This document shows positions 24,080-53,013 of a stretch of 64,000 bases of DNA, in pieces. Each line of letters starts with the position of its first letter. The first letter of the stretch is position 1. The notes below the pieces were generated by a model. It saw nothing but the letters and a program-made list of their open reading frames with translations, was not told where the DNA came from and made no database searches. A program made the translations under genes and the position numbers. The stretch is taken from the NCBI GenBank assembly GCA_017429685.1, contig JAFROL010000013.1, positions 31,994 through 95,993 of the forward strand. The letters run 5' to 3'. This stretch comes from Bacteroidales bacterium (GTDB taxonomy: Bacteria > Bacteroidota > Bacteroidia > Bacteroidales > P3).

Positions 24080-24778
24080 ATGACTATACTTCTACTCGAA
24101 ACAGCCACACAAGTGTGCTCGATAGCACTGGCAAAGAATGGCAAAATCGTCGCCGAGAAACACAGCGACGAGCCAAACGCCCATTCGTCGAAATTAGCAG
24201 TTTTCATCGACAATATTTTCAAAGAAAGCGGCATAAGTCCCGACCGGCTCGACGCCGTGTGCGTCTCGTCGGGTCCCGGCTCGTACACCGGCCTCCGCAT
24301 CGGCGTAAGCAGTGCCAAAGGCCTATGCTACGCCCTCGGAAAACCACTGCTCGCCGTGCCGACATTGCAGAATATGGCAGACCTTTACTTTGCGCAACAT
24401 CCAGAATACAACGGCTTTGTCTGTCCGATGATCGACGCAAGGCGTATGGAATGCTATACTGCCATCTTCAGCCGCAGCGGCATCGAGAAGGAAACCTCGG
24501 CCGACGTAATCGAGGCCGGCATCTACGACCGCTGGCTGGACAAAAGTCCCGTTGTCTTTATCGGCGACGGAGCGGAAAAGACCCGACCGCTGCTATCCTG
24601 CCACAGCAACGCCCTCTACGACAGCACCTTCGTCATATCGGCCACGGGGATGGCAGCCACCGCCGAAAACAAACTGAAAAACGGTCAAATCGAAGACACT
24701 GCCTATTTCGAGCCCTTCTACCTTAAAGACTTTGTGGCCAAGAAATCAGTAGTCCACGGGTTGAGAGCGGAAAACTGA
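24080..24778 (+). CDS. tsaB: tRNA threonylcarbamoyladenosine biosynthesis protein TsaB
   Basis: 232 aa beginning MTILLLETATQVCSIAL, with GPGSYTGLRIGVSSAKGL. Confidence 0.85.
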   Translation: MTILLLETATQVCSIALAKNGKIVAEKHSDEPNAHSSKLAVFIDNIFKESGISPDRLDAVCVSSGPGSYTGLRIGVSSAKGLCYALGKPLLAVPTLQNMADLYFAQHPEYNGFVCPMIDARRMECYTAIFSRSGIEKETSADVIEAGIYDRWLDKSPVVFIGDGAEKTRPLLSCHSNALYDSTFVISATGMAATAENKLKNGQIEDTAYFEPFYLKDFVAKKSVVHGLRAEN

Positions 24779-24825
24779 GAACGGAGATCGGAGAACTGAG
24801 AACCGAGAACTGAAAACGGAAAGCG
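24763..24825 (+). repeat. nine degenerate heptads (GAGAACG type) overlapping the tsaB stop
   Basis: The heptads are gagagcg gaaaact gagaacg gagatcg gagaact gagaacc gagaact gaaaacg gaaagcg. The tsaB stop TGA at 24776-24778 lies inside the array. Confidence 0.9.
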
Positions 24826-24863
24826 ATGACAGACAGACACTTTAAATAGAATTTGCTAACGGA

Positions 24864-25943
24864 ATGCTTCGCTACATTGGAAAACGGTTGATGTATGGAT
24901 TCCTCGTCATTCTGGGCGTGGTTACGCTGGTGTTTTTCCTTTTCAACATACTGCCTGGCGACCCGGCGCGAATGATGCTCGGCCAACGTGCCGATGCCGA
25001 AAGCATCGAAATCATCAAGCACGACCTCGGTATGGACAAGCCCATAGGGACGCAATACCTTGGCTACCTCAACGATCTGGCACCCATCTCGTTGCACAAC
25101 AACAGCGACAAAGACAGCTATTGGTTTCTCGACCCCGAAAAATATGCTCCCTGCACCACGCTGATTAAACTCGGCAGCACGTCGCTCGTGCTCAAGGCGC
25201 CCTATCTGCGCCGCTCGTACCAGACCAAACGCAAAGTCAACGAAGTCATTGCAACGGCTTTTCCGCAGACTGCCGTGCTTGCACTGACGGCGATGGCTTT
25301 CGCCCTGATTGTCGGCATACTGCTCGGCATCTTTTCGGCGCTGCACAAAGGCAGCTGGATCGACCGCCTGACGCTGCTGCTGTCCACGATGGGTATGTCG
25401 CTTCCATCCTTCTTTGCCGCCATACTGATAGCCTGGTTTTTCGCCTACGTCCTTGCCGACTGGACCCACCTCAATATGTTCGGCAACCTGTATGAAGTCG
25501 ACGACTACGGCTGCGGCGAGCACATCAGCCTGCGCAACCTCATCCTGCCGGCCCTGACGCTGGGCATCCGCCCCTTGGCCGTCCTTGTCGAACTGACCAA
25601 AAGCTCGATGCTCGAGGCCCTGTCGCAGGACTATATCCGCACTGCCCGCGCCAAGGGAATGAGCCGCAGTCGCCTGATATTCAAACACGCACTGCGCAAT
25701 GCTATGAACCCCATCGTCACCTCGGCCTCAGGCTGGCTGGCCGGATTGCTGGCCGGCGCCGTCTTTGTCGAATACGTCTTCGACTGGAAAGGGATGGGCG
25801 TTGTCATCGTCGACGGCCTGGAGAAGTACGACTTCCCTGTCGTTATGGGAGCCATCCTCTTCATCTGCATACTGTTAGTACTGATCAACATCATTGTCGA
25901 CATACTCTACGGTCTCCTCGACCCACGAGTGCGTCTGAACTGA
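24864..25943 (+). CDS. ABC transporter permease (Dpp/Opp-type inner membrane component)
   Basis: 359 aa with the N-terminus MLRYIGKRLMYGFLVILGVVTLVFFLFNILPGDP, typical of DppB/OppB-like permeases. Confidence 0.8.
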   Translation: MLRYIGKRLMYGFLVILGVVTLVFFLFNILPGDPARMMLGQRADAESIEIIKHDLGMDKPIGTQYLGYLNDLAPISLHNNSDKDSYWFLDPEKYAPCTTLIKLGSTSLVLKAPYLRRSYQTKRKVNEVIATAFPQTAVLALTAMAFALIVGILLGIFSALHKGSWIDRLTLLLSTMGMSLPSFFAAILIAWFFAYVLADWTHLNMFGNLYEVDDYGCGEHISLRNLILPALTLGIRPLAVLVELTKSSMLEALSQDYIRTARAKGMSRSRLIFKHALRNAMNPIVTSASGWLAGLLAGAVFVEYVFDWKGMGVVIVDGLEKYDFPVVMGAILFICILLVLINIIVDILYGLLDPRVRLN

Positions 25944-25986
25944 CTCTAATCCATCATATTTCACCAACAAGCAAAGCACACCGAAA

Positions 25987-27807
25987 ATGTCCGACACGTC
26001 AAAAATGGGAGTCGGCGGCCTACTCAAGAAGCTGGTTCCCTACGTACTCCCCTACCGTTGGCTGCTCATCTCCGCGCTGATACTCACCGCCTTGGGAGCA
26101 TCGATGGCACAGGTCAACGCCATTGTGCTCGACCGCACCGTCGACTCTATCAACGACCTGCTGCACCAGCCCATCTTCGAATGGGGCAAGGCGGCACGCC
26201 TGCTCATCATCGTCAGCAGCATCCTGCTGGGCAAAGAGATCCTTGCCGCCGTCATCACTTTCGGGCAGCGCATCTTCGGCGAAAAAATCCGCATCAATGT
26301 CAGCCGCGACCTGTCGCTCAAGGTGATAGACCGCATCCTCACCTTCAGGATGGCCTTCTTCAGCGCCGCCGGCAACGAGCCCGGCAAGCTGCAGACCCGC
26401 ATCGACCGCGGCATTATGAGCCTGAGCAACACCGTCAAGAACTTCTTCATCGACATACTGCCGCTCTTCACCAGCGCCATAATGGCCCTGGTTCTGATTT
26501 TTGCCGCCAACGTCTACGTGGGCCTTGTGGCGCTGGCCATCATACCCGTCTATTTCATCATCACCGCCCGTCAAGGAGTGCGGATGAAAGGGTGGCGCCG
26601 CAACGTTTTCGGCACACATCAGGCTCTGAACCACGGCATTATGAACATACTTGAAAGTATGGGCGTCATCAAGTCCTTCAACCGCGAGAGCGTGGAAGCC
26701 GCACGCCAAGCTGCGCTGCAGGAGCAGTCGACGCAGCAGCAGATGCAGACACGTCGCATCTCATTCCTGTTCGAGGGACTGAAAAGCTTTGTCGAGCAAA
26801 TAGGCACCGTGCTGATAATCATACTTACAGCCTACCTTGTCCTGACCGACTACCCCGGGATGAGCATCGGCAAGATAATGTACCACGTGATGCTCTTCAA
26901 CAACGTCAGTGCCCCCATCCGCCAGCTGCACCGCATCTACGACGACCTGAACGACGCGCTGATTTATGCCGAGGGCTTCTTTGGCATCCTCGAAGCCGAC
27001 GAAGAGGTCGAGGAAAGCGGCAAATACAAGCCCGCCAAGGTGGAAGGCAACTTCGCGTTGCGCAATGTGGAGTTCACCTACCCCAACGGCACCCACGCCA
27101 TACGCAACCTGACGATGGACATCCGTGCCGGCGAAACGACGGCCCTTGTTGGGCTGAGCGGTGCCGGAAAGACAACGATTGTCAACCTGCTGGACAAATT
27201 CTATTCGCCCGACAGCGGCACTATCACCCTCGACGGGGTGCCGCTCAACGAATGGGACACACAGACGCTGCGCGACAACATCGGCCTTGTGCTGCAGAAA
27301 AACCACATTTTCAGCGGCACCGTCGAGGAGAACATACGCTACGGCAAACCGTCGGCCACGCGCCAGGAGATTGAGGAGGCGGCACGCAAGGCGTACATCT
27401 ACGACCAGATAGCCGCAATGCCCGACGGCTTCGGCTCACAGGCCCTTCTGCTGAGCGGCGGACAGCAGCAACGCATCGCCATAGCGCGAATGTTCCTGAA
27501 GAATCCGCCTATCATATTCCTCGACGAGCCCACCGCCAGCCTCGACGCCATTGCCACCGAGCAGATCAAGTCGAGCATCGACGCCATCAAGCAGGGGCGC
27601 ACAGTGATTGTAATATCCCACAACATAGGACAGATCATCGATTCCGAGCAGCTCTATGTCCTCGACCACGGCACTGCCGTACAAAGCGGCTCGCCGTCGG
27701 AGGTCTACAAGCAAGGAGGTCTGTACAAGGAGATTTTCGACGCCAGTGCCCGCAGTATGAACGTCGACAAAATTGCCGACACGATGGAAGTGAGAACTGA
27801 GAACTGA
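25987..27807 (+). CDS. ABC transporter ATP-binding protein/permease (MsbA-like exporter)
   Basis: 606 aa with a six-TM N-terminal half, Walker A GLSGAGKTT, signature LSGGQQQR and Walker B IIFLDEPT. Confidence 0.9.
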   Translation: MSDTSKMGVGGLLKKLVPYVLPYRWLLISALILTALGASMAQVNAIVLDRTVDSINDLLHQPIFEWGKAARLLIIVSSILLGKEILAAVITFGQRIFGEKIRINVSRDLSLKVIDRILTFRMAFFSAAGNEPGKLQTRIDRGIMSLSNTVKNFFIDILPLFTSAIMALVLIFAANVYVGLVALAIIPVYFIITARQGVRMKGWRRNVFGTHQALNHGIMNILESMGVIKSFNRESVEAARQAALQEQSTQQQMQTRRISFLFEGLKSFVEQIGTVLIIILTAYLVLTDYPGMSIGKIMYHVMLFNNVSAPIRQLHRIYDDLNDALIYAEGFFGILEADEEVEESGKYKPAKVEGNFALRNVEFTYPNGTHAIRNLTMDIRAGETTALVGLSGAGKTTIVNLLDKFYSPDSGTITLDGVPLNEWDTQTLRDNIGLVLQKNHIFSGTVEENIRYGKPSATRQEIEEAARKAYIYDQIAAMPDGFGSQALLLSGGQQQRIAIARMFLKNPPIIFLDEPTASLDAIATEQIKSSIDAIKQGRTVIVISHNIGQIIDSEQLYVLDHGTAVQSGSPSEVYKQGGLYKEIFDASARSMNVDKIADTMEVRTEN

Positions 27808-27873
27808 AAACGGAAAACGGAGAACTGGCTGCCGCATTATGGCTTTCAGTTCTCCGTTTTCAGTTTTGAGTTC
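27801..27873. terminator. heptad-built hairpin between convergent genes
   Basis: There is a perfect 15-bp core (27813-27827 with 27847-27861). It extends to about 27 bp with 2 mismatches, and the loop is 19 nt. The arms are GAGAACT/GAAAACG heptads. The left arm overlaps the last 7 nt of the ABC gene. Confidence 0.65.
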
Positions 27874-27881
27874 TCCGTTTG

Positions 27882-28589: not shown

Positions 28590-28664
28590 ATCGTTCGAAG
28601 GCAGTTCTTATATCGTTCTTATATCCGCAATATAAGAACGATATAAGAACTGCATTCGAACGAT
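28590..28664. repeat. 35-bp-stem palindrome with 11-nt units (GTTCTTATATC)
   Basis: The arms are (TA)TCGTTCGAAGGCAGTTCTTATATCGTTCTTATAT and their inverted copy, separated by the loop ccgca. There is one mismatch and no flanking U-tract. Confidence 0.9.
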
Positions 28665-28697
28665 GTGCGAAAAGGGCCATCGGGTGCGAGGTTGGTG

Positions 28698-29936
28698 CTA
28701 CCTGGAAAGTTGGCTGGCCAGGTTCTTGGACTGCTTGATGTTGTCTTCGATAGAGCAGTAGATCCAGCTGCCGTAGCGTCCGATGGAGAAGACGTCGGAA
28801 TTGCCCAGCTGTTCCATTTTGCGGGCGCGGTCCTGTTCCATCTGCTTGGTGATGTGGACGTAGGCGGGATTCATCAGCAGGGTGTTGTGTGAGACGACGC
28901 GGTGTTGTGGAGTGGTGATTCCGGCGAGCTGCATATCGTGCAGTGTCCGTTGGAAGGCGTATTCGTAGTCGATGGGCTGGTCTTCCTTGTAGCCTATTTC
29001 GACGTAGACGGAGAGTCGGTCTTTCTGGAAGATGTTATCGTAGAAGCCGACGCGATAGAAGATGTATTTGCTTTCGGGATAGTAGATCCAGTTGTTGTTG
29101 ACTTCGAGTCCTTTGCGGTCGAAGCCGATATTGAATACGAGCACTTTGTTGCAGGTGTAGAGCGACTTGTCGAAGGGTGTGGCGGTGAGCGTCAGCAGTG
29201 CTGGGAACGGCATTGTGGAGATGAGGTTGTCGTAGTGGATCTGGCGCTTGTTGGTTGTTGCGACGTGTGCCTGCAGGTCGATGTGGGTGATGTATTCGCG
29301 CAAGCAGACTTTGGACATATCGACGTGCCTGCAGAGGGAATGGACGTACTCCATAGCGCCGCCTTTGGGATAGAGGAAGGTGGCGTTGTATGAGGTTGCG
29401 GGGTTGGTCTTGAAGTTGGCGATGATGTCCTCCTTGTCGGCGAAGGGGAAGAATCGTCCCATAGCGTCGACGTCGAGTGTGTCGAGGTCGCAGGCGTAGA
29501 GTTTCTGGTTGTAGGGGATGAGGAATTTTTCGGCGATGGACTTGCCGAACTTGGCGTAGAGCATCTGCTTGAATGTGGAGTAGTCCTTGACGGGATTTTG
29601 GAAGAGGTCGTAGAGGCAGTCGATGAACTCTTGCTGTGGGAGCTGATGGATGTTTTTCTGGAAGGGGTAGTCGACGAGGCGGTCCTTGTACTTGATTTGA
29701 GTGCGCTTGGTGACGGTGAGGACGTCGTCGGCATTGATTCCGCTGAAGATGAGGTTTTTGATTGCCTGATCCTGGAAATGGAAGAAGTGGCCGGAATAGT
29801 CCCATACGAAACCGTCCTGCTTGATTGTCCTGCAATAGCCACCCACCTGGTCGTCTTTTTCGATGACGATGTAGTCGTTGTTTGTGTAGGCGGCATAGGA
29901 AAGGCCTGTGATGCCTGCTCCGATAATTAGATCCAT
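28698..29936 (-). CDS. FAD/NAD(P)-binding oxidoreductase (amine-oxidase / UDP-galactopyranose-mutase-like fold)
   Basis: 412 aa with the N-terminal dinucleotide motif MDLIIGAGITGLSYA...EKDDQVGG. Confidence 0.65.
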   Translation of the reverse strand: MDLIIGAGITGLSYAAYTNNDYIVIEKDDQVGGYCRTIKQDGFVWDYSGHFFHFQDQAIKNLIFSGINADDVLTVTKRTQIKYKDRLVDYPFQKNIHQLPQQEFIDCLYDLFQNPVKDYSTFKQMLYAKFGKSIAEKFLIPYNQKLYACDLDTLDVDAMGRFFPFADKEDIIANFKTNPATSYNATFLYPKGGAMEYVHSLCRHVDMSKVCLREYITHIDLQAHVATTNKRQIHYDNLISTMPFPALLTLTATPFDKSLYTCNKVLVFNIGFDRKGLEVNNNWIYYPESKYIFYRVGFYDNIFQKDRLSVYVEIGYKEDQPIDYEYAFQRTLHDMQLAGITTPQHRVVSHNTLLMNPAYVHITKQMEQDRARKMEQLGNSDVFSIGRYGSWIYCSIEDNIKQSKNLASQLSR

Positions 29937-30063
29937 TAAAGATTAAAAATTAAAGATTAAAAATTAAAAAAATTGAGAGTTGAGAGTTGAAAGTTGAAAT
30001 CAGTTGTCGCTGGTATTGACCTGCGGGAAAGGATTTCAACTTTCAACTCTCAACTTTCAACTT
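29937..30063. repeat. heptad array plus 29-bp hairpin (TTGAGAG/TTGAAAG units)
   Basis: TAAAGAT/TAAAAAT heptads start directly at the oxidoreductase ATG. Then 29973-30001 pairs with 30032-30060 (29 bp, 1 mismatch, 30-nt loop). Confidence 0.9.
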
Positions 30064-30072: not shown

Positions 30073-32121
30073 CTACCAGAGTTGGGCGCGCTTGTCGGGG
30101 TCGAGCCACATCTTGTCGCCCTGCTTGACGGCCCAGGCATCGTGGAACTCACCGACGTGGGGCAGAGTGACGTTGACGCGGTTGCGGGCAAGGGCGTGGA
30201 CGTCCATCTGGGTGAGCTGGAGGATGGCCTCGGGACGGGCGTTGCTGGCCCAGACGGCGGCATAGGCAAGGAAGAAGCGCTGTTCGGGTGTGAAGCCGTC
30301 CATCTTCTCTTTGTTGACCTGGCCTTTCTGGATGGCGTTCTGCATAGCGAGGTGGCTGATGTGGAGACCGCCGTTGTCGGCGATGTTCTCGCCGAGGGTG
30401 AGGGCGCCGTTGGCGTAGGTTTCGGGATCGTCAAGGACCTTGACGGCGTTGAAAGCATCGACGAGGACCTGTGCGTTCTGCTTGAAGTTCTCGGCGTCCT
30501 GCTCGTTCCACCAGTCGTTGAGGTTGCCGTCCTTGTCGTAGTTGCGGCCCTGGTCGTCGAAACCGTGGGTCAACTCGTGGCCAATGACGACTCCGATAGC
30601 GCCGTAGTTGGCAGCATCGTCAGCGTCGAACTGGAAGAAGGGCGGCTGGAGGATGGCTGCGGGGAAGCAGATTTCGTTGGTGGTGGGGTTGTAGTAGGCG
30701 TTGACGGTCTGGGGCGTCATCTGCCATTCGTCGCGGTCGACGGGCTTGTTGATCTTGCTCATATAGTAGGCCATATCGAACTCGTTGCTGCGGACGACGT
30801 TGGCGTAGTAGCTGTCGTTCTTGATTTCGAGGCCGCTATAGTCGCGCCACTTGTCGGGATAGCCGATTTTGACGAGGATGGTGGCGAGTTTTTCGTGGGC
30901 GTTGGCCTTGGTCTGGTCGCTCATCCAGGTGGCCATATCGATGCGCTGTCCGAGGGCGGTCATCAGGTTGTCGACCATCACTTTCATACGCTCTTTGGCT
31001 TCGGCAGGGAAATACTTGTCGACATAGAGGTGTCCGAGGGCTTCGCCCATAGCGCCGTCGACGGTCGAGGTGACGCGTTTCCAGCGAGGACGGTTGGCTT
31101 CGCGGCCGCTGAGGAGCTTGCCGTAGAATTCGAAGTTGGCGTCGACGAAGTTGTCGCTGAGGTAGGAGGCTGCGCCGTTGATCTCGTGCCAGGCGAAGTA
31201 GGCCTTGAGGGTGTTGATGTCTTCCTTGGCGAGGATGTCGCTGACGGCGGCAAAGTACTCAGGCTGAGCAATGTTGAAGGTCTTCATACCATCGAGAATG
31301 CCCATAGCGGAGAAGTAGCCTTTCCAGTCGATGTTGGCGGCCAGGGCGATGGCCTCGTCGACGGTCTTGCGGTTGAAGGTCTTGAAGGGGTCGCGGTTGG
31401 TGAGCTTGTCGTACTGGGCTTTAGCCAGTTTGGTTTCGAGAGCCATAACGGTGGCGGCCAGTTTGTCGGCGCTGACGCCGGTCATCTGGTCGTAGCCTGC
31501 ATTGGCGAACTGGGTCTGCATCAGTTTGAGGTAGCCTTCGCGAATCTTGGCGTTGTTGCCCTCGTCGGTGAGGTAGTAGTCGCGGTCGCCAAGGCCGAGT
31601 CCGCTCTGGTAGGCCCAGGCGATGCACTGCTTGGCATCGTCCTTGTCGGCCTCGCCGAAGACGGCGAAGAGGACGTGGTTGCCACGCTTGTGGAGACGGA
31701 TGATTTCGGCGTTGATGTCTTCGCGGGTATTGACTGCCTGGATTTCATCGAGGTAGGGTTTCAGTGGCTCGGCGCCCTGCTCCTGCAGGCGGACGCTGTC
31801 CATACCGATGTTGTAGAGGGTAGCGATTTTGTCGGCAATGCTGCCCGGCTGGTTCTGGTTGGCGGAGACGGAGTCGATGATGCCGCGGAGCTGCTTCTGG
31901 TTTTCCTCGGCGAGGAAGTCGAAGGAGCCGTAGCGCGAGTGTTCGGCGTCGAGAGGATGGTTTTTCATCCATCCGCCGCAGGCGTACTGGTAGAAATCTT
32001 CTTGAGGCGACACAGTGGTGTCGAGGTTGTCGAGGTTGATGCCGGAGGTGAGTTCCGTCTTCTTGTGACAACCGGTAGCGATCATTGCCATTGCTGTGAT
32101 TGTTAAAATGGTTTTTTTCAT
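30073..32121 (-). CDS. M13 family metallopeptidase (PepO / endothelin-converting-enzyme-like) lipoprotein
   Basis: 682 aa with the lipobox IATGC, the zinc motif HELTHGFDDQG and the downstream ENIADNGG. Confidence 0.9.
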   Translation of the reverse strand: MKKTILTITAMAMIATGCHKKTELTSGINLDNLDTTVSPQEDFYQYACGGWMKNHPLDAEHSRYGSFDFLAEENQKQLRGIIDSVSANQNQPGSIADKIATLYNIGMDSVRLQEQGAEPLKPYLDEIQAVNTREDINAEIIRLHKRGNHVLFAVFGEADKDDAKQCIAWAYQSGLGLGDRDYYLTDEGNNAKIREGYLKLMQTQFANAGYDQMTGVSADKLAATVMALETKLAKAQYDKLTNRDPFKTFNRKTVDEAIALAANIDWKGYFSAMGILDGMKTFNIAQPEYFAAVSDILAKEDINTLKAYFAWHEINGAASYLSDNFVDANFEFYGKLLSGREANRPRWKRVTSTVDGAMGEALGHLYVDKYFPAEAKERMKVMVDNLMTALGQRIDMATWMSDQTKANAHEKLATILVKIGYPDKWRDYSGLEIKNDSYYANVVRSNEFDMAYYMSKINKPVDRDEWQMTPQTVNAYYNPTTNEICFPAAILQPPFFQFDADDAANYGAIGVVIGHELTHGFDDQGRNYDKDGNLNDWWNEQDAENFKQNAQVLVDAFNAVKVLDDPETYANGALTLGENIADNGGLHISHLAMQNAIQKGQVNKEKMDGFTPEQRFFLAYAAVWASNARPEAILQLTQMDVHALARNRVNVTLPHVGEFHDAWAVKQGDKMWLDPDKRAQLW

Positions 32122-32139
32122 TGAATAAAATATTTTAAA

Positions 32140-32220
32140 TTTGTGAATTTGCTAATTCGTTAATTTGTTAATTCGTTAATTTGTTAGTGCTGACGCGTCA
32201 GCCACTAACACATTCACACA
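32140..32220. repeat. octamer array (TTYGYTAA x6) with central hairpin
   Basis: The octamers are tttgtgaa tttgctaa ttcgttaa tttgttaa ttcgttaa tttgttag. They are followed by GCTGACGCGTCAGC and then cactaaca cattcaca. The hairpin core GTTAGTG...CACTAAC is at 32183-32209. The array ends 1 nt from the sugar transferase stop. Confidence 0.85.
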
Positions 32221-37686: not shown

Positions 37687-37747
37687 TTATATAATTTTGT
37701 TTTTTTGTTTATACTATGATTGCTTCTGCCACTAACGCATTAACACA

Positions 37748-40700
37748 CTAATGCTCCGACGCCTCCAATCCCTCGTACTCCCTTGTCGACTCCTTGACGT
37801 TGGCTTCGAGCGACTCGCGAATCATCCTCTTCAGTCTCAACACTTGCTCGTCGACATCTTTGCGTTTTGACGGACGGTACAGATTCTTGTATCGGAGCTT
37901 GGGCGATACGGCAAAGTTCAGTTTCGGCATCGTTCCAAGCACATCGACTGCAAGGCGCACTGGCAGCGGACTTTGGACTATCTCGACGTGATAGTCGTAG
38001 TTGTTGCTCAGGCTGTGTCGGCCTTCGGCCACAATCTGGTATTTGTGCAGCGACAGCAGGAATGGGTACACTTCCAGTTCCTTCCGGAACACTGTCATCG
38101 CCACATCCAGGCTGTCGACGTGGATCTTCGAGTCGTCCTCGCGCCACGATTTCAGCTGCAGCAGTTTGGCAATCCGGTCTATATCCTTGTTGTCGAGCAC
38201 CACAAGGTTCTGGCCCGTCAGGGCGGCAGCACCGCGCAGGGTGCTCATCTTGGGCTGGTAGAAAGCGTTGACGTATGTCTCCGCACACAGATGGAAGTCG
38301 GCATTGCCCTCCAGGTCGTTCAGCAGTGGCACAAGGGTGTCGACATAAGGTATCATCTCTATGAGCTCCTGTATGTTGATGTCGAGCAGATGGAAGTCCA
38401 TACCGACAAAGATATGGTTCACCCTCGGCGTGCGGTACATACCCGTCAGCTGCATCCTGGCGGCTTTGCAGACAAAACCCACCTGGTTCAGCACCGCCAC
38501 ACCGTCCCTGATTTGCACGTCGCCGGCCACCTCGCGCAGGTCGTTGTCGAAAGCGCGGGCCTCTTTGATACGGGTGTGGAGAGTGAAGTCCACATCCTTC
38601 GGCACAATGAACGGATGCGCCGACGTGTCCACATTGTCTTCCTTGCGCTGGGCCTCCAACGTGTCGGCATCGCTACCTAAGCCACTAAGCGCATCGAGAA
38701 GGTCGTCGACATTCGTGTAGTTCGACGTGAAATAGAGGTCGCCCTTCAGCATATCCTCGTGGCTGAGCCATTTTTCCAAGCCCGTCACCGCTCCCGACAG
38801 GTAGAAGTCGGAATTGCCGAAAACGATGTTGGCATTGGCGATCTCGCAACGCTCAGGCTTGTAGTTGAACTTGATGTCGGGAATCTGGACCATATAGTCG
38901 AACTGTTCCAGGTCGATGTATCCGCGCTTGAAATCGATGTCCAGGTCGGGCGACCACTGCTGCAGGGTGTTAGGCTTCGACGGGTCGTAGTTGGCACCAC
39001 CCTTGATGGTCAGACCAGCCAAATCCACCGTGGTGCTGTCGTCGAGGTCGCAATGCAGCGCGCTGCTGGTGAAATCGATCTTGTACTTCACCTTGTCGCT
39101 CTCCTTCGACACCGGCACCATAGCAAAAGTGCCCTTCGGACTGCTCACCGAGGCCTTGATGCTGTCCATCGAGCCCTTGAGCGACGCAAAGTCGAAATCG
39201 CACACCACGCGGAACGGCAGCGTCGTGTCGAAGATGTCGCTTATGGCGGCCGTCAGGCGCGTCTCGCCTATCGTGCCGTCAATCTTGTTGTTCGGCAGCT
39301 GCGCATCGATGCCGCTGGCCGTGATGGTGGCCGAAAGCAGCTCGCCGAACAGGCCGCGCTTCATCTTGCTGGGCATCTGCACGTTGATGTTGCCTTTCGG
39401 GATTTTGGCATAGATGGTGTCATATTCGTAATTGACATCAGTCAGCCCGATATTGCCCGAAAGCTTCATCTTGGCAAAATCGCCCTTCTGCAGTTGTTCC
39501 AGGTTGGTCTGGGCCTTCAGGTTCAGGTTGGCGCGTCCTTCGAGCTTCATATCCAGGTCGGCGGGCATCATCGGCTTTGCATCGGGCAGATACACAACAC
39601 CTTTGACCGTGGCGTCGGTGTTCATCTTACCCAGCAGGTCGGCGACATTGCCGCTCACCTCTATGTTGTTGCGGCCCGTGCGGGCAGCTATCTTGGTGAT
39701 TTGCACATTGCTGACGCCATTCTCGTTCAGATTCAGGTCGGCATTGAGGTCGGCACTTATGTCGGTCAACTTGTAGGGTAAGATGCTTTTGTCGTAGAAA
39801 CGTCCCGAATTCAGCTTCAGGTTGGCCGTCACAAGGGGCAGCACCGTGTCCGACAGGCGGCCAGCCACCTTTCCCGTAATCGTCGCAACGGCATCGAGGT
39901 CCATACCCTTCTGCCATTCAGTGAATTGCTTCGGCAGCATCGCCAGCAGCTGATTCACGCCCCAGTTGCCTGTGGCGAAATTCAAATCCATCGTCATCGG
40001 CTCGTCGTCGTTGGGCAAATCGACCACCCCGTCAACCGTCAAAACATAGTTCAACAGATTGACCGTCAGCTTCTCGGCCTTCACTTGCCCGCTTTCCAGG
40101 TCGCCGTTCAGCTTCCCTTCAACGACAAGCAGGTCGTCGACAGCGCGCATACCTTCCTTAACCACTTCGTTGACAAACTCCTGCCCGTTCAGCGTCAGGC
40201 AGTCGGCCTTGACCTTCAGCAGCACATCGCCGTCAAACTGGCTCTGCTTCGTGTCGCCGTCAATTTTCAGCACGATATCCTTCAGCGACGCATTCATATT
40301 GCTGCTGTCGCCATCGACGAGCATAGCGACACTGTCAATGTCCAGCCGCACTTTGGCATCGATACTGTTGGTCTCGTATTTGCCGTCGACAGCCAAATTC
40401 AGGTTGTCCAACGTGGCCGTCGTGTTCAACGCCTCGTTCAAGTAAGAGGCTCCAAATTTCTTTATCTTAATGCTTTTCAGCGACACCAATTCCGGCATCT
40501 CGAAAGGTTCCGAAGCCGTGGTGTCCTCGTCCGACGACGGGAAAATATCATAGTTCGACTTGCCCTCCTTGTTGGTATAGAGGTTGGCCGCCACATCGTC
40601 GACAACCAACTTGGTGACCTCGATATTCTTGTTTTTCAGATACTCACGCAGGTTGATACCCACACCCACCGAACCGATGCGCGCCAGCGTGTCGCTCCCA

Positions 40701-41376: not shown

Positions 41377-41405
41377 CGTTTTTCAACCACTAACGAATTA
41401 ACAAA

Positions 41406-41933
41406 TTAACACACTTTATAAATGTCTTTATAGAACCTTCCAAAGTTGTCATAGTCGAGGCCGTAACCAAGTATGAAATCGTTTGGTATAGAGCGTCCGA
41501 CATAGTCTATCTTAAAGTTCTTCTTGAAGCTGTCAGGCTTGTAGAGGAACGAGGCAATATAGATGCCTGCAGGTTCCATCTTGCGCAGCTCTTCAAGCAT
41601 TGCCTCCATCGTGATGCCCGTGTCGACAATATCCTCCACAATCACCACATAGCGCCCCTTGCACTTGGCCGGAAACGGCAGTTCGGTCCTCACCTTGCCC
41701 GTGCTGCTCATACCACTATAAGAACTGTATTTGACGAAATAAGTCTCGGCATCGAAGTCCAGCGCGCGCGCCAGGTCGGTCATAAACATAAAGGCCCCCG
41801 TAAGGGTCGGACAAAACAGCGGGTTCTTGTCCTTCAGGTCGCGCGAAATCTCAGCAGCAACCCTGTCCACCTCGCGCTTTATCTCAGCCTCGGTCATATA
41901 TAGCTCGAAATTTTTATCGTGTACTGTTATCAT
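41406..41933 (-). CDS. hpt: hypoxanthine phosphoribosyltransferase
   Basis: 175 aa with the PRPP motif VVIVEDIVDTGITM and a C-terminal GYGLDY. Confidence 0.9.
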   Translation of the reverse strand: MITVHDKNFELYMTEAEIKREVDRVAAEISRDLKDKNPLFCPTLTGAFMFMTDLARALDFDAETYFVKYSSYSGMSSTGKVRTELPFPAKCKGRYVVIVEDIVDTGITMEAMLEELRKMEPAGIYIASFLYKPDSFKKNFKIDYVGRSIPNDFILGYGLDYDNFGRFYKDIYKVC

Positions 41934-41934
41934 C

Positions 41935-42043
41935 GATAATTCGTTAATTCGTTAATTTTTCAATTTGTTAGTCATTTACGTTATTCGTTATTCGTTCTTC
42001 GTTCTCCGTTCTTCGTTCTCCGTTCTTCGTTCTCCGTTCCCCT
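41935..42043. repeat. composite octamer (GTTAATTC type) plus nine-heptad (TTCTCCG/TTCTTCG) array filling the hpt-FGE spacer
   Basis: Octamers span 41935-41974 and heptads span 41981-42043. On the minus strand the array reads GGAGAACGAAGAAC... starting at the stop of the upstream gene. Confidence 0.9.
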
Positions 42044-43298: not shown

Positions 43299-43405
43299 CT
43301 TCGCCCGTTGTACGGTATATGTACGGTATATGTACGGTATTTGTACGCTTCGAAAGCGTACAAATACCGTACATATACCGTACATATACCGTACAACGGG
43401 CGAAG
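43299..43405. repeat. GTAC-iteron palindrome, copy 2 (perfect)
   Basis: The sequence is CGCCCGTTGTACGGTATATGTACGGTATATGTACGGTATTTGTACGCTT-cga-inverted copy. The arms pair perfectly over 52 bp (43299-43350 with 43354-43405). The units are 11 nt. It lies about 95 nt past the nrdG stop. Confidence 0.95.
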
Positions 43406-43497: not shown

Positions 43498-43962
43498 TCA
43501 TTTGCGCCAGAAAAGCGAGGTGATGTCCTGCATCGCGCCGTCGCTGACGCGATAGAGCCGCTGGTTGGTCTTGGGATTGCGCAGGTTGCCCAGATGCGCA
43601 AGGTAGGGTCCGAGCTTGACATAGTCGAAATTGCGGAGGTCGACAGCCTTCGAAAGCAACGAACGGCCACTGTACCAGGCTGTCCGCAGCCACGGATAGC
43701 GCTGCCGCAGATGCTGCATCAGACCGTCGACCTCGTCGGGATGGGCATCGCCACCCATAACGGCAACACAGGTGATGTTGCCGTCGCAGCGGTCGACAAG
43801 GCTGTCGACGGCGTCGGTCGTCAGAGGCTGCCCGTCGTCGCGCCAAAGGTATGGCGAATGGCATCCGGGGCAACGGCAGGGGCATCCGCTGACGTTGACG
43901 GCAAGGGCCACTTCGCCAGGAATCTCCTGAAACACTATGTCGCTATTGGTGTATTTGAGCAC
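43498..43962 (-). CDS. nrdG: anaerobic ribonucleoside-triphosphate reductase activating protein
   Basis: It has the radical-SAM cluster motif CPCRCPGCHS. I trimmed the start to the GTG at 43962 (MLKYTNSDIVFQEIP...), because the upstream part of ORF 43498..44046 is encoded by the heptad repeat. Confidence 0.8.
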   Translation of the reverse strand: MLKYTNSDIVFQEIPGEVALAVNVSGCPCRCPGCHSPYLWRDDGQPLTTDAVDSLVDRCDGNITCVAVMGGDAHPDEVDGLMQHLRQRYPWLRTAWYSGRSLLSKAVDLRNFDYVKLGPYLAHLGNLRNPKTNQRLYRVSDGAMQDITSLFWRK

Positions 43963-43987
43963 GGGATATTGGTTAACGCGTTTGTCA

Positions 43988-44067
43988 GTGACCAGTGACC
44001 AGTGACCAGTGACCAGTGATACGAGCGCGTTCGTGTCACAGGTCACTATTCACCATTCACTATTCAC
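43988..44067. repeat. heptad arrays in the nrdD-nrdG spacer
   Basis: (GTGACCA)x4 plus GTGATAC on the plus strand (43988-44022). On the minus strand, five GTGA at a 7-nt pitch (TCAC at 44036, 43, 50, 57 and 64 on plus). The first of these contains the nrdD stop codon. There is a central imperfect hairpin. Confidence 0.9.
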
Positions 44068-46163: not shown

Positions 46164-46322
46164 TTATAATGTATTTTTTTCATTTTTACACAAAAAAGAG
46201 TTCAGCGGACCCTCCTTACGGACTTGGTTTGCTGGCTGTGCGACAAAAGCTTGCATATGGGGCTGCGACGGCGAAAACGGACGACGAGGACAATTGGCTT
46301 TTGGCGCGAAAGCATTGTCGTT

Positions 46323-46500
46323 GGTCGAGGCCGGTCTCCTGGCTTGTCCGACGGGCAACGCCTTCTCGGACCCATCGGTCCAATGGCTGTTGTTGCCCCA
46401 CGTGGGTGAACAGACTCCCCCACCCGACATCACAGTTGCGCGACAGCTCGCGAATTGCACGCGATTCCCTCCCCGACAGATGCGGGGCTTTTCCTCGACC
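46323..46500 (-). promoter_or_regulatory. cobalamin (B12) riboswitch aptamer
   Basis: On the minus strand, the 5' half of P1 (GGTCGAGG) is followed by GGGGAGGGAATCGCGTGCAATTCGCGAGCTGTCGCGCAACTGTGA, then AGCCATTGG...GGGTCCGAGAAGGCG, then the B12 box AAGCCAGGAGACCGGCC and the 3' half of P1 (CCTCGACC). These segments line up with the E. coli btuB leader motifs as I recall them. Confidence 0.85.
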
Positions 46501-46576
46501 TACAAAAGTGTCAAAGTACTCATTAAGAATGAATAGTGGCATTTTTTGCCTCTATAGGCCTCTTGTTTTGACAATG

Positions 46577-46584: not shown

Positions 46585-46640
46585 CTACAAATAGGCGTAC
46601 GCGGCAAATAAAGTTCTCAACGCAGGGTGTTGATAAGTTA

Positions 46641-46700
46641 GTTAATGGGGGAGTTAAAAGGGGAGTTATAAGGGAAGTTAAAAGGGAAGTTAAAAGGGAC
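46641..46700. repeat. five 12-nt repeats (GTTAAAAGGGRA)
   Basis: The units are gttaatggggga gttaaaagggga gttataagggaa gttaaaagggaa gttaaaagggac. The A-tracts are phased at 12 nt. The array is upstream of the candidate nrdD promoter. Confidence 0.9.
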
Positions 46701-46716
46701 AATACGAATTATCTTT

Positions 46717-46765
46717 CCGTTCTCCGTTCTCCGTTCTCCGTTTTCCGTTCTCCGTTTTCCGTTCT
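46717..46765 (-). repeat. seven heptads (minus strand GGAGAAC/GGAAAAC) directly after the ClC stop
   Basis: The plus strand reads ccgttct x3, ccgtttt, ccgttct, ccgtttt, ccgttct. The array ends 7 nt from the stop at 46773. Confidence 0.9.
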
Positions 46766-46772
46766 CCACTGA

Positions 46773-48578
46773 CTACTCTTCGCTGACTTCGGAGACGAAA
46801 CGTCTGTAGGCCGAGAAGGTGTTGGCGCGCGAAAGGAAACCGAGATAGTAGCCCTGGTCGTCGATGACAATAAGGTTGTAGCGGTTGCCGATCCGGAACT
46901 TGTTGACGACCTCGTTGGGCGGGTCGCTGATGCGCACGATGTCGCCTTCAGAGATGGGGTGCATCAGGTCTATCACAGCAGTGTCGTCGTAGTGTTCGGG
47001 CTGGAACATTATGTGGCGCACATCGTCGAGCAGTATGACGCCCAGAAACTTGTCGTCGTCGCTGAGCACGGGGAAGACGTTGCGTTTGGAGTATTTGATG
47101 GCTTCGACAAGGTCGCGAAGCTTGTCCTCTTCGCGCACGATGACGAAATTGGTCTCGATGAGTTTTCGCATATCCATCAGCTGCCAAGCCGAGCGGTCCT
47201 TGTCGTGGGTCATCAGGTCGCCCTTTTCAGCCAGCTTGCGTGCGTAGATGGAATGCTTTTCGAAAGGCGAAACGCAGAGGTAGGTGACCGACGAGGCCAC
47301 CAGCAGCGGGACCATAAGTGCGTAGCCGCCAGTGATTTCGGCAATGAGGAAGATGGCCATAAACGGAGCGTGCATAACGCCAGTCATCACCGCCGCCATC
47401 CCGACAAGGGCAAAATTGGCCGTCGACTGTTCGGGCAAGCCGATCTGGTTGCTGAGCATACAGAGGAAATAGCCAGCCATTCCGCCAATGATGAGCGAGG
47501 GGCCGAAGGTGCCGCCCACACCGCCACATCCTATCGTCGTGGCCGTAGCCACAGCCTTGGTCAGAATAAGGATAAGAATATAGGCAAGGACAATCCAGTT
47601 GTTGTCCTTGAAAGCCGCAAACACGCTGTGGTCGAACAGCAACTCGTCGCTGCCGTTGAGCAGTTCGGTCAGGAACGAATAGCCCTCGCCAAACAATGGC
47701 GGGAAAAGGAATATCAACAATCCTAACGCTATGGAACCGATGACGGCGCGCGTGGCCTGGTTGCGCCGACGCGCAAACCACTCCTCCACCTTGTCGGTGA
47801 TGCGCAGAAAATAGATCGACACAGCGGCACAAAACACTCCGAGCACTATATAATAAGGTATCTGCGACAGCCCCACCTCGCCAACAACACGGAAGGCAAA
47901 CTGCAAATCGTTGCCCATCAGGAAGTAGGCCACCGTCGAAGCGCTGACGGCCGAAAGCATCAGCGGCAAGATGGCCGTCGCCGTCATATCGAACATAAAC
48001 ACCTCTATAACAAACAGCACTCCTGCGATAGGAGCCTTGAAGATGCCTGCAATGGCACCGGCGGCACCACAGCCCAGAAGCATCTTGACATCGTGGGCGC
48101 TAAGCCTGAAAAACCTTCCGACATTGGACCCAATGGCGCTGCCCGTCGACGCGATGGGCGCCTCCAGTCCGACACTGCCGCCGAAAGCCACCGTCAAAGT
48201 GGATGCCACCAAAGACGAATACATATTGCGCGCCGGAAGGACACCGCCTTTGCGCGAAAGCGAAAGCAGCACCGACGGCAATCCGTGGCCGATGTTGCCC
48301 TTGACGACATAGCGCACAAAGAGTATCGTCAGCAGTATGCCAATGGCTGGATAAAGCAGAATCAGCAAATTGCCACCAACAAAAGTGGGTATGTTGAACT
48401 GCAGGAGCCATCGGTTGGTGACGTGCACAAGAGTTTTGAGCACAACGGCAGCAAGACCCGCCAGAATGCCCACAACCACGCTGAGCGCAAGCAGGAAGAC
48501 GCGGTCGCTGACGTGGCGCATACGCCACACGATGAAACGCTTGTATGTGTCTTTGAATGTCTTGATAACGCTGTTCAA
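46773..48578 (-). CDS. ClC family chloride channel/transporter with C-terminal CBS pair
   Basis: 601 aa with the motifs GGSVGLEAP and GGTFGPSL. The C-terminal roughly 140 aa resemble tandem CBS domains. Confidence 0.85.
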   Translation of the reverse strand: MNSVIKTFKDTYKRFIVWRMRHVSDRVFLLALSVVVGILAGLAAVVLKTLVHVTNRWLLQFNIPTFVGGNLLILLYPAIGILLTILFVRYVVKGNIGHGLPSVLLSLSRKGGVLPARNMYSSLVASTLTVAFGGSVGLEAPIASTGSAIGSNVGRFFRLSAHDVKMLLGCGAAGAIAGIFKAPIAGVLFVIEVFMFDMTATAILPLMLSAVSASTVAYFLMGNDLQFAFRVVGEVGLSQIPYYIVLGVFCAAVSIYFLRITDKVEEWFARRRNQATRAVIGSIALGLLIFLFPPLFGEGYSFLTELLNGSDELLFDHSVFAAFKDNNWIVLAYILILILTKAVATATTIGCGGVGGTFGPSLIIGGMAGYFLCMLSNQIGLPEQSTANFALVGMAAVMTGVMHAPFMAIFLIAEITGGYALMVPLLVASSVTYLCVSPFEKHSIYARKLAEKGDLMTHDKDRSAWQLMDMRKLIETNFVIVREEDKLRDLVEAIKYSKRNVFPVLSDDDKFLGVILLDDVRHIMFQPEHYDDTAVIDLMHPISEGDIVRISDPPNEVVNKFRIGNRYNLIVIDDQGYYLGFLSRANTFSAYRRFVSEVSEE

Positions 48579-48719
48579 TTTAAAATATCATTTCAAAAAT
48601 AAGATGCAAAATTACACAAGTTTTCACGAACCGCCAAATTTTTTTTCATTATGCAAACTAAAAAAACATTATTGACGTTAATGACAGATAAAGGAAAAAC
48701 AATAAAAAACAATAAACCA

Positions 48720-49712: not shown

Positions 49713-49730
49713 GAACACGACAATAAAGCA

Positions 49731-49767
49731 TAAAAAAGCAGAGCTGTCAAACGACAGCTCTGTTTTT
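49731..49767. terminator. bidirectional rho-independent terminator
   Basis: The layout is A6-G-CAGAGCTGTC-aaac-GACAGCTCTG-T6. It sits between the convergent OmpA-like and NlpC/P60 genes. Confidence 0.8.
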
Positions 49768-49800
49768 TCGATGAATTATCTGTAGAATTCTTCTGCGACA

Positions 49801-50409: not shown

Positions 50410-50480
50410 TCTTTTTTAGGAATGCAAAATTACCAATAAAAATCCAAACAGCCAACCGCCAAAGGCAGTTTTAGAATTTT

Positions 50481-51968: not shown

Positions 51969-52033
51969 ACGCTTTGGGGATTTAGGGTTTCTGGAGTTGA
52001 TAGACGTTCATTCTTAGGATCGGGACGATACGT

Positions 52034-52903
52034 TCACTTTTTTCTTTCCTCGTCACGAACCCGGTCCATAATCAGCAGCATCAAGATGCAAATAGCCAAT
52101 GCTCCGAGCGTACCCAAAAGCACAATAACGGCACGTTTCGGATAGGCCTTCTTGTCGGCAGGCGATGCCTGGTCGAGCCAGAACTTATAGCTTACCGGAC
52201 GGGCCATATCGACCTTCGTCTGCGACATACGCGTCTGCAATTCAGCCAGCTCCTGCGTCTTGTTGCTAATCAGCTCGGCAACACCGAAACGGTTTTTGTC
52301 ACGACGCAGTGTATCTTCGAGGGCTCGAATGTCGGCCTCAAGTTCGGCACATACATCCTGCATAATGCCGTAGGCGTCGCGCGAACGGTCCTGCTGGATG
52401 CGGCTCGTAAGCGTGTCGTAGTTCGATGCGATAAAGTTGGCTATGTCTGCCGCCCACTGCGGGTCGACATCAAGAACCGATATTTCGACACCAAGGTACT
52501 CGGTGCGCTTCACACTCACGTTGCTACGATAAGCCTCGTGCAGCTTGAAGTACTTCTGATGGTCGTCGCCGCTGATGCCATAGTGTTCCATCATATTGAA
52601 GCGGCGACAGACATCGTCCTCCATCGACTGCGAGAGCAGAATCTGTATAGCATACTCACAGTCGCGCTCGATACCATAGTCCATATAGTCCAAACTGTAA
52701 CGGTCGGCCAAAATGGCTTTCGACAGGCGGTTGGAGCTGGTGGGGAAAAGTATGGCCGTCGATTTGTATCGCGGCGTGACCAGCAGCGATGCCACAACCG
52801 AAACGGCGGCAGCGACAACGAAAACCACTGTAAGCAGCTTCCAGTGACGTTTGAAAAAATTCACCGTGTTTTTGATTTCATAATTATTGCCAAAATCGCT
52901 CAT
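52034..52903 (-). CDS. Wzz-like polysaccharide co-polymerase (chain-length determinant)
   Basis: 289 aa with an N-terminal and a C-terminal TM segment flanking a coiled-coil-rich periplasmic region. The N-terminal pattern is LLVTPRYKSTAILFPT. Confidence 0.65.
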   Translation of the reverse strand: MSDFGNNYEIKNTVNFFKRHWKLLTVVFVVAAAVSVVASLLVTPRYKSTAILFPTSSNRLSKAILADRYSLDYMDYGIERDCEYAIQILLSQSMEDDVCRRFNMMEHYGISGDDHQKYFKLHEAYRSNVSVKRTEYLGVEISVLDVDPQWAADIANFIASNYDTLTSRIQQDRSRDAYGIMQDVCAELEADIRALEDTLRRDKNRFGVAELISNKTQELAELQTRMSQTKVDMARPVSYKFWLDQASPADKKAYPKRAVIVLLGTLGALAICILMLLIMDRVRDEERKK

Positions 52904-52906
52904 AAT

Positions 52907-53013
52907 AAATTGAATATTGAGAATTGAAAATTGAAATCACTTGTTACTTTGATAGTTGATAGTTGAAATCATTGGTCTCTTGTCACTGGTCACTATTCAC
53001 TTGTCACTAATCT
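52907..53013. repeat. entire intergenic spacer in a 7-nt register (15 heptads)
   Basis: The heptads are aaattga atattga gaattga aaattga aatcact tgttact ttgatag ttgatag ttgaaat cattggt ctcttgt cactggt cactatt cacttgt cactaat. Confidence 0.9.

Follow-up and report, generated by a model that had tools for sequence, protein, structure and literature searches.

The 64,000-nt stretch of a Bacteroidales genome analysed here (assembly GCA_017429685.1, contig JAFROL010000013.1, positions 31,994 to 95,993; hereafter the window) contains arrays of imperfect 7- and 8-nt tandem repeats that follow or overlap the ends of many of its genes. Our analysis suggests that these arrays are probably the arms, the expanded arms and the one-armed remnants of a superfamily of small, non-coding, dispersed palindromes, similar to repetitive extragenic palindromic (REP) elements or miniature inverted-repeat transposable elements (MITEs) and endowed with slippage-prone arms, that populates an uncultured Bacteroidales clade of gut or rumen type. 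The arrays are not independent of each other, and the sequence-only reading that first described them, made from the window alone, was unable to see the dispersed palindrome with a conserved core.

A dispersed palindrome with a conserved core

The tip of a hairpin located between nrdD and nrdG, GTGATACGAGCGCGTTCGTGTCAC, recurs in three non-orthologous spacers of L005, a sister species whose nrdD is 95% identical to that of the window, with 23 of 24 bases conserved at one of them and a closely related variant at each of the others. When metagenomes were scanned with GTGAWACGARCGNNNTCGTGTSAC, a pattern derived from positions 44016-44039 of the window, 97 loci with 114 copies were obtained in 785 kb of related contigs, when about 2 would be expected by chance. 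All 114 copies have GTGAnnn units to the left of the core and nnnTCAC units to its right; the conservation of GTGA is in part a product of the search pattern and of the rule used to extend the arms. The usual form is a 66-nt palindrome, [GTGAnnn]3-GTGAAACGAGCGCGTTCGTGTCAC-[nnnTCAC]3, with a non-repetitive core of 24 nt and arms that range from 0 to 19 units, 3 + 3 being the commonest combination. A single copy of the 114 falls inside a called gene. Contact with a stop codon is more frequent for arms exceeding three units (26 of 33) than for arms of at most three (31 of 76).

Sister types have GAGAAC/GAAAGCG, TTGARAR or 8-nt GTTAGTG/CACTAAC arms around a GCTGNCGC-type loop, which is common to the GAAAGCG, GAGAAC and TTGAAAR hairpins and to the octamer hairpin, and one locus (L148) is a chimera made of a GAGAAC arm, the core and a TCAC arm. 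The 785 kb hold 668 arrays of periods 5-13, of which 311 are of period 7, mostly GTGACCT, GTGACCA and GTGAATA. Several different unit families are found side by side in one genome, and the same few recur at most loci.

These observations bear on the possibility that the arrays are purely local simple sequence repeats (SSRs), produced by slippage of a 7- or 8-nt seed in place, with fold-back or template switching generating the inverted arms and no copying between loci. Among the long-unit repeats of bacteria heptamers are the most frequent, and polymerase slippage has been given as the reason (Mrazek 2007, as reported in PMC4679880 and PMC4692102), and a local origin would agree with the presence of GTGAnnn arrays, with or without an inverted partner, in many unrelated phyla (at least 120 matches), with the unit indels that distinguish strains, with the 14- and 21-nt higher-order periods of the arrays, with the merging of unit types inside one spacer (GGAGAAC into GAATAAC into AATTAAC) and with the failure to find a transposase among 551 neighbouring proteins or, in a weak test, in about 1 Mb of clade DNA. 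However, a non-repetitive 24-nt core present in 114 copies, in different loci and genomes, cannot arise independently each time, and this refutes a local origin for the elements with the GTGA core. The standard arm length of 3 + 3, the recurrence of a few unit families instead of random seeds, and the dispersal of a second palindrome family, of period 11, also speak against it, and we regard a purely local origin as unlikely.

Gain, loss and unit changes between relatives

Loci for comparison were gathered through nrdD homologues, in the case of syntenic loci, and through the core scan, in the case of metagenome loci. The spacers of L005 are likewise full of arrays, and those of L009-L017, whose nrdD is 92-94% identical, are essentially array-free. 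The spacers of the window and L005 compare as follows.

ClC to nrdD: GGAGAAC heptads and 12-mers in the window; a GTGA hairpin (GTGA-core element) in L005.
413/415-aa gene to Wzz: three heptad arrays in the window; [ACAATAAC]x6 octamers in L005.
nrdD to nrdG: about 100 nt in the window; 9 nt in L005.
Wzz to Wzy and Wzy to NlpC: empty in the window; filled in L005.
NlpC/OmpA (convergent genes): a conventional bidirectional terminator in the window; a GTGA hairpin in L005.

The nrdD-nrdG site, occupied in the window, is empty in L005, L010, L014 and L016, where the genes overlap or leave a spacer of 9 nt. The C-terminus of the window nrdD has been replaced after RRHYAT, the first GTGA unit being the stop, and comparison of the filled and empty sites reveals a replacement of about 20 nt and not a clean insertion. 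Copies have spread to non-orthologous spacers, and they have been gained and lost between sister species.

Changes in unit number were found as well. Between orthologous copies from related metagenomes, with flanks 97-100% identical, the difference in length is exactly 7 or 14 nt and affects a single arm; each arm gains and loses whole 7-nt units independently of the other. Because the differences are of whole units in one arm, the arms are slippage-prone repeats, one of the roles that had been suggested for these spacers from the window alone. No unit variation was detected among strains 97-100% identical to the window, nor among L005-L008. Hypervariable contingency loci were considered for this window and rejected, since near-identical strains show no unit variation and no reading frame depends on unit number.

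Arrays at the gene ends of the window

Tandem Repeats Finder (TRF) detected arrays of period 7 or 8 at nine of the eleven loci named earlier, and periods 11 and 12 were also seen. Period-7 arrays in the whole window number 13 (510 nt), against 1.2 in 200 dinucleotide shuffles (maximum 4). When the intergenic DNA was shuffled alone there was a clear excess for period 7 (11 arrays and 446 nt against 0.56 arrays and 11 nt), for period 8 (5 against 0.58) and for period 11 (8 against 0.47), so that the periodicity noticed from the sequence alone survives comparison with shuffled sequence. The two remaining loci, 37728-37750 (three octamers) and 32201-32220 (2.5 units), lie under the TRF threshold and are too short to be significant alone; both belong to a CACTAAC/GTTAGTG family found at other sites. 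Higher-order periods of 14 and 21 nt occur inside the arrays.

Every array is intergenic according to the codon-usage gene model from which gene boundaries were taken, and direct reading of the sequence places 11 of 11 arrays over a stop codon or with an end no more than 9 nt from one. The stop codon is inside the array in tsaB, the ABC exporter gene, the 1086-aa gene, hpt and nrdD. The proposal that the arrays form a real and related family tied to stop codons is borne out, and so is the sense orientation of all the GGAGAAC-type arrays, which occur at five loci of the window. AT-rich arrays abut start codons at 29935-29970, 41933-41957 and 52907-52936, and some co-directional spacers are arrays throughout. 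One such spacer has the form stop-[GRAGAAC]n-[RAATTAAC]n-ATG, and another is stop-[GTGAnnn]n-[CAACTAT]n-[TTTCAAT]n-ATG. An assembly artefact is ruled out by the presence of identical arrays in independent assemblies: L001, L002 and L003, from other samples in ENA and Logan and 99.9-100% identical to the window, hold the arrays base for base, and a 252-kb ENA contig is 99.995% identical to it.

The individual loci are listed below, with fold z-scores relative to shuffles and the RNA minimum free energy (MFE) where the spacer folds strongly. The gene names proposed earlier were confirmed by Pfam or precomputed annotation except for 'AsmA-like', the 1086-aa protein having no Pfam match.

24763..24820, plus strand: tsaB array of about eight heptads (GAGAACG, GAGAACT, GAAAACG), TRF period 7 x8.3 and period 21; the stop TGA (24776-24778) of the gene, which has a TsaD-family Pfam match, is inside the array; no inverted partner; z -0.8.
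27787..27881, no strand assigned (spacer of convergent genes): ABC exporter/thioredoxin-like palindromic element, with a 5' arm of GAGAACT/GAAAACG x5 (27787-27827), a loop containing TGGCTGCCGC (27826-27835), a motif common to other elements, and an inverted 3' arm (27844-27880); the exporter stop (27805-27807) is inside the first arm; MFE -50.8 kcal/mol, z -8.2.
29935..29970, minus strand: AT-rich heptad array, in the sense direction TTTTAAT/CTTTAAT x5, TRF periods 7 and 14 at 100% match; it extends to the start codon (29936) of an amine-oxidase-like gene.
29969..30063, minus strand: M13 peptidase palindromic element, 9 nt past the stop (30073-30075); sense [GTTGARA]4, loop, [TYTCAAC]4 and a T7 run; TRF arrays 29969-29999 and 30034-30063; MFE -50.2 kcal/mol, z -9.7.
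32138..32220, minus strand: sugar-transferase octamer element, after the stop 32222-32224; sense ATGTGTGAATGTGTTAGTGG, core GCTGACGCGTCAGC (also present in L210, after a GAAAGCG array), CACTAAC and [RAATTAAC]x5 toward the M13 start; TRF period 8 x6.1 (32138-32186); z -2.2.
37728..37750, minus strand: octamers of the 1086-aa gene, sense TTAGTGTG TTAATGCG TTAGTGGC, with the gene stop within; z +0.3; weak alone, and best read as the putative remnant 5' arm of an octamer element.
41385..41412, minus strand: hpt octamer array, sense GTGTG TTAATTTG TTAATTCG TTAGTGG; TRF period 8 x2.6 (41391-41411); the hpt stop (41406-41408) is inside, and the array ends 8 nt from the next start.
41933..42041, minus strand: FGE-to-hpt spacer, sense stop, [GGAGAAC/GAAGAAC]x7, [GAATAAC]x2, [RAATTAAC]x4, ATG; all arrays, G-rich next to the stop and becoming G-poor toward the start; TRF period 7 x8.7, period 14 at 93% and period 8 x3.1 (41933-41957, 41979-42039); unstructured, z +1.3.
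43963..44067, minus strand: nrdD-nrdG palindromic element with the GTGA core; 5' arm GTGAATA GTGAATG GTGAATA GTGACCT (44040-44067), whose first unit supplies the nrdD stop, core 44016-44039 and 3' arm [TGGTCAC]x5 (43986-44015); TRF 43986-44019 and 44043-44067; z -3.8.
46640..46767, minus strand: ClC-to-nrdD spacer, after the ClC stop 46773-46775; sense [GGAGAAC/GGAAAAC]x7.4, linker GATAATTCGTATTG, [TCCCTTTTAACT]x5 (period 12); TRF 46714-46767; unstructured, z +1.1.
52907..53013, minus strand: 415-aa-to-Wzz spacer with three arrays; sense stop, [GTGAnnn]x5, [CAACTAT]x2.6, [TTTCAAT]x4, ATG; TRF 52907-52936, 52949-52966 and 52969-53009; z +1.7.

The longest open reading frame (ORF) of nrdG (43498-44046, minus strand) starts inside the repeat element, and alignment with relatives puts the true start at GTG 43962; the TCAC-oriented arm contains no stop codon, hence the false N-terminal extension. 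Comparable artefacts may account for some nrdD homologues of 731-752 aa. An Rfam scan of the window at gathering scores gave no match at the arrays, its sole match being a cobalamin riboswitch (RF00174, 76 bits, 46312-46512, minus strand) upstream of nrdD, the anaerobic ribonucleotide reductase gene, and a tRNA scan of the window accounted for none of the arrays. The array-filled ClC-to-nrdD spacer lies just upstream of the promoter region of nrdD and its riboswitch, a region that is conserved between the window and L005. The period-7/8 arrays of the window are confined to 24.7-53.0 kb, with none in 1-24700 or 53100-64000, and the short spacers of the array-free flanking 35 kb are comparable to those of the array region, which suggests local clustering or local spread.

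Other repeats were seen in the same DNA. Two near-perfect palindromes of 11-nt units, CCCGTT[GTACGGTATAT]3..[ATATACCGTAC]3AACGGG, are found at 3525-3613 and 43309-43396, and a third long one, with a different unit, at 28604-28650; the z-scores of their RNA folds are -12.6, -16.8 and -10.6, respectively. The GTACGGTAT-type palindrome of period 11 is likewise dispersed, with copies in L005 and at 22 or more of the 97 metagenome loci. Degenerate 11-nt direct repeats (CCTACCAAAGTT or TTCTTACCAAG), unrelated to the heptads, occur in long non-coding regions at about 11560-11611 and 60046-60095 and at 15726-15766 of L005; with a period near one turn of the DNA helix, they may be candidate protein-binding sites. 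In the 18.3-20.5 kb region, two copies of the palindrome GGATTGCAAATCC lie about 25 nt apart (~19495-19565, ..gcggattgcaaatccttatattaag..gcgtcggattgcaaatccg..), and a nearly identical sequence is found beside the core element in metagenome locus L174.

Polarity and distribution

A genome-wide scan for five GTGAnnn units produced at least 120 matches in many phyla; those listed include Cyanobacteria, Acidobacteriota, Chloroflexota, Planctomycetota, Verrucomicrobiota, Proteobacteria and Firmicutes, with GTGACCA arrays in Scytonema and Anabaena. This rules out that heptad arrays in general are specific to the clade; the conserved core, unlike them, is essentially restricted to it. When an inverted TCAC array was found within 150 nt of the GTGA array it was downstream in 24 cases and upstream in 1, among the matches listed. 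No global sense bias of GTGA arrays across phyla was found in the co-directional spacers of the listed matches (28 sense and 28 antisense), a count in which the antisense class is confounded by over-extension of start codons by the gene caller. One GC-rich Burkholderiales metagenome-assembled genome (MAG; DASPNJ010000141.1, L039 6407-6500) has a GTGAnnn/nnTCACn hairpin with the 14-mer ACGAGCGAGTTCGT of the Bacteroidales core in its loop, a single case that may be a coincidence or the sign of a wider relationship.

Within the clade, polarity relative to gene ends was measured in counts of co-directional period-7/8 arrays made with a self-training gene caller that, run on the window in 8-kb chunks, recovered 46 of 49 known 3' ends. 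Arrays within 15 nt of a stop have more G than C in 74 cases and more C than G in 4. In 71 of these 78 arrays every one of the three sense frames contains a stop, as had been claimed for the GTGA, TTGA and TAA classes. Arrays within 15 nt of a start have the opposite composition (38 with more C, 4 with more G). The same is true of arrays with no inverted partner: 20 are richer in G and 4 richer in C at 0-15 nt downstream of a stop, and 33 are richer in C and 1 richer in G within 15 nt of a start. Array-free leaders are already A-rich and G-poor (A 0.42, G 0.13). Arrays make up about 10% of the spacer bases between co-directional and between convergent genes, against 3.4% between divergent genes.

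A regular arrangement of this kind could also be that of a binding platform, in which a multimeric RNA- or DNA-binding protein would read GUGA, GGA/GAG or UAAC every 7-8 nt. HutP, with its NAG-N4 repeats, and the proteins that recognise repeated GGA or GAG would be analogues. Binding of S1, Csp or CsrA has been proposed by MacGregor for TAACTGA repeats (PMC4679880), and the elements keep GTGA/TCAC while the next three positions vary among few triplets, with three units per arm as the standard and a polarity conserved across phyla. Yet the conservation of GTGA comes in part from the way copies were searched for and extended, many unit families coexist in one genome, array copy number varies freely between strains, and no candidate protein was identified. 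Taken together, a dedicated platform seems to us very improbable.

Folding and transcription termination

The sequence-only reading pictured several of the spacers as long hairpins with tandem repeats for arms. Some spacers do fold in this way, but they are a minority. When the spacers were folded on the sense strand and compared with shuffles, significant hairpins were found at only four loci of eleven: ABC exporter/thioredoxin (z -8.2), M13 peptidase (z -9.7), nrdD-nrdG (z -3.8) and, weakly, the sugar transferase (z -2.2). Arrays in a single orientation are unstructured, and the spacers of tsaB, FGE, ClC, hpt and the 415-aa and 1086-aa genes do not fold beyond shuffles (z -0.8 to +1.7). The 66-nt consensus is very stable, with a folding energy of -49 kcal/mol as RNA (z -8.6) and -32 kcal/mol as DNA. 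In the copies of the canonical elements the stem consists of 6-bp segments separated by single mismatches.

Stable hairpins at gene ends are reminiscent of transcription terminators, a role that had been put forward for the arrays but finds no general support. Of 97 hairpins taken in the direction of transcription, 13 are succeeded by a U-tract, a frequency equal to the background of 12%, so that as a class the elements do not resemble intrinsic terminators. Copies were found within the nrdDG operon and in a 5' leader, and in L151 a copy of the core is followed by a separate, conventional terminator. For these reasons a dedicated terminator role across the element class appears unlikely. A terminator and promoter scan gave counts not over those of shuffles, with a loop limit of 3-8 nt that misses these hairpins. 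The M13 copy, with its T7 run, is alone among those of the window in resembling a classic intrinsic terminator; individual copies such as this one, or the GTGA hairpin that replaces a terminator in L005, may have been co-opted.

More generally, the arrays could be RNA elements maintained for their function, the hairpins as terminators or stabilisers of 3' ends and the single arrays as unstructured insulator or leader modules. Several facts are in keeping with this: the stability of the hairpins and the T7 run after the M13 copy, the GTGA hairpin of L005 in place of the NlpC/OmpA bidirectional terminator of the window, the enrichment in co-directional and convergent spacers, the strong orientation relative to transcription, and the precedent of REP and short tandemly repeated repetitive (STRR) hairpins, for which transcript stabilisation has been proposed (PMC3733652, PMC2670836). 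On the other hand, U-tracts stay at background, copies occur inside the nrdDG operon, in a 5' leader and next to the terminator of L151, outer stem positions are poorly paired, and whole spacers have been swapped for unrelated arrays between sister species, and other close relatives have none. Maintenance by selection on the RNA is, in our opinion, improbable as a general explanation.

A proposed origin for the arrays

Dispersed palindromes with slippage-prone arms offer, we think, the best explanation. Copies have reached non-orthologous intergenic spacers, and a copy can overwrite the last codons of a gene, its first unit then providing the stop. According to this proposal the arms would subsequently grow by replication slippage. 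Their fixed polarity could allow the elements to persist in compact spacers by acting as a tolerance filter. The 5' arm, G-rich and with stops on both strands, would immediately stop a gene reading in from either side, and the 3' arm, G-poor and rich in A, C and T, would present an adjacent start with an A-rich, G-poor and unstructured leader resembling the native ones. All-frame stops, which had been suggested as a function of the arrays, are indeed there, but would fit best as part of this filter. The elements would be mainly selfish or neutral passengers. Two-armed copies that are transcribed would form very stable hairpins in 3' untranslated or intercistronic regions, and could shield the upstream mRNA from 3' exonucleases as REP elements may do, and occasionally an element would take the place of a terminator.

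Several points weigh against this proposal, or limit its reach. The 785-kb sample was chosen by core match, so the 114 copies give no density per genome. For the core-less arrays of tsaB, FGE and ClC, the only ties to the family are the likeness of their units, linkers in common and a small number of chimeras; they could be independent products of slippage in place. No target-site duplication or terminal tag is seen at the boundaries, where position -1 is A or T, as inside the arrays, and the first unit is GTGA. With neither a target-site duplication nor a sharp terminal motif, transposition would be only one of the possible routes, and copies could have been made instead by recombination or template switching. 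No protein family recurs among the 551 proteins neighbouring the elements in the 785 kb, and no mobilising enzyme or parent insertion sequence was found there; a phmmer search of six-frame ORFs in about 1 Mb of clade DNA for TnpA of the IS200/IS608 type, a weak test, was also negative. The association with stops is partly forced, as any ORF that enters a GTGA array must stop, but the non-overlapping cases and the bias at the start side are not. The argument that the polarity would be harmless to the host is built on orientation counts. Finally, stem pairing falls off outward, from well-paired inner units to outer units whose variable positions are paired in about 55% of copies, and mismatches (T·T or A·A) are favoured at the third variable base of the heptads, which is paired in 15-23 of 59 copies of the canonical elements (L138-L234). 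Because outer positions are poorly paired and the third variable position is mismatched, selection for a perfect RNA hairpin seems weak; the mismatched third position may, speculatively, reflect avoidance of long perfect palindromes.

A more ambitious reading is that the clade carries undescribed, self-propagating palindromic micro-elements whose heptad arms expand by themselves, with polarity as a design rule for the colonisation of gene ends in many phyla, although we would call this doubtful. In its strongest version, the periodic GUGA arms would be recognised by a multimeric factor dedicated to them, binding RNA or DNA, or by mobilisation machinery of an unknown kind, and across the genome the elements would insulate cistrons from one another and protect 3' ends, in bacteria whose initiation is not led by Shine-Dalgarno sequences. 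Heptamer tandem repeats, reported from bacteria for decades and largely unexplained, take here the form of a discrete element whose core is conserved and whose length is standard, and in which gain, loss and slippage between strains can be measured. The polarity rule (24:1 across phyla, among the matches listed, and 74:4 at stops) would be a simple account of the location of arrays at stop codons and of the stop triplets in their units. There are also consequences for the annotation of Bacteroidales MAGs, where the elements overwrite C-termini and bring in stops of their own, nrdD being an example, extend N-termini falsely, the nrdG ORF being another, and break up assemblies. If the hairpin copies stabilise or terminate transcripts, they could tune operons in a lineage-specific manner in gut or rumen Bacteroidales.

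Comparison with known systems

The statement that no described element has this architecture was too strong, because heptanucleotide tandem repeats are a described class. The elements seem related in kind to known heptamer repeats and to REP elements. In the arrays we find head-to-tail 7-nt units, variation in unit number and the same heptamers at many loci, which are the features of heptanucleotide SSRs, of long simple sequence repeats with 5-11 nt units (LSSR5-11) and of STRR. A core-bearing palindrome with heptad arms in Bacteroidales, or the polarity rule, had no description in the literature searched, whose coverage was incomplete.

Like cyanobacterial STRR, the elements have 7-nt tandem units, a few heptamers at many intergenic sites per genome and hairpins between the genes of an operon. 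Unlike them, they reside in a Bacteroidales host and have a conserved 24-nt core with a 3 + 3 architecture, for which we found no such STRR description. The unit sequences also differ from those of the classic STRR1-3. STRR of the hupS-hupL operon are tandem heptanucleotides that form hairpins within the operon, and a role in transcript stability has been proposed for them, their function remaining unknown (PMC2670836).

Other heptamers are similar in being intergenic and in varying in length between close relatives. They include LSSR5-11, TAACTGA and GGGAATC-GGGGAYT (Mrazek 2007, MacGregor 2015, Rehm 2015). TAACTGA repeats occur in some Bacteroidetes, and MacGregor argued that stops in the forward orientation limit their overlap with coding sequence (PMC4679880). 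Heptamers with inverted pairs are known in Xanthomonas and Nostoc (PMC4692102), and the same source states that there is 'no detailed literature' on bacterial heptamer tandem repeats. In contrast to our elements, LSSR5-11, TAACTGA and GGGAATC have been described as plain direct repeats, many of them just upstream of starts (PMC4679880, PMC4692102). A palindromic core, a standard element length and a universal polarity of the arms were not reported for them in the literature searched.

MITEs, including the Correia elements, and BOX differ from our elements, in which inverted arms are present but their boundaries show no consistent duplication, the 785 kb yielded no parent insertion sequence, and the module is of only 7 nt. 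What our elements have in common with Correia (NEMIS) and pneumococcal BOX elements is a small size, a lack of autonomy, an intergenic location, the formation of hairpins and co-transcription with adjacent genes, and BOX has a module whose copy number varies. With respect to REP and REPIN sequences, the elements described here differ in having at least 66 nt and heptad arms that expand by slippage; the GTAG or CGTC tag is not present in their terminal logo, and no RAYT, an IS200-like tyrosine transposase flanked by the repeats, was found in the weak test on about 1 Mb of clade DNA. REP elements are located downstream of ORFs, with possible roles in mRNA stabilisation or termination, and bear that tag, unpaired, at one end (PMC3733652). 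The resemblance is nevertheless considerable: our elements are high-copy, extragenic, imperfect palindromes found mainly downstream of ORFs, of 66 nt instead of 20-40 nt, and, like REP and REPIN sequences, they are short, lie between unidirectional or convergent genes, and are plausibly transcribed.

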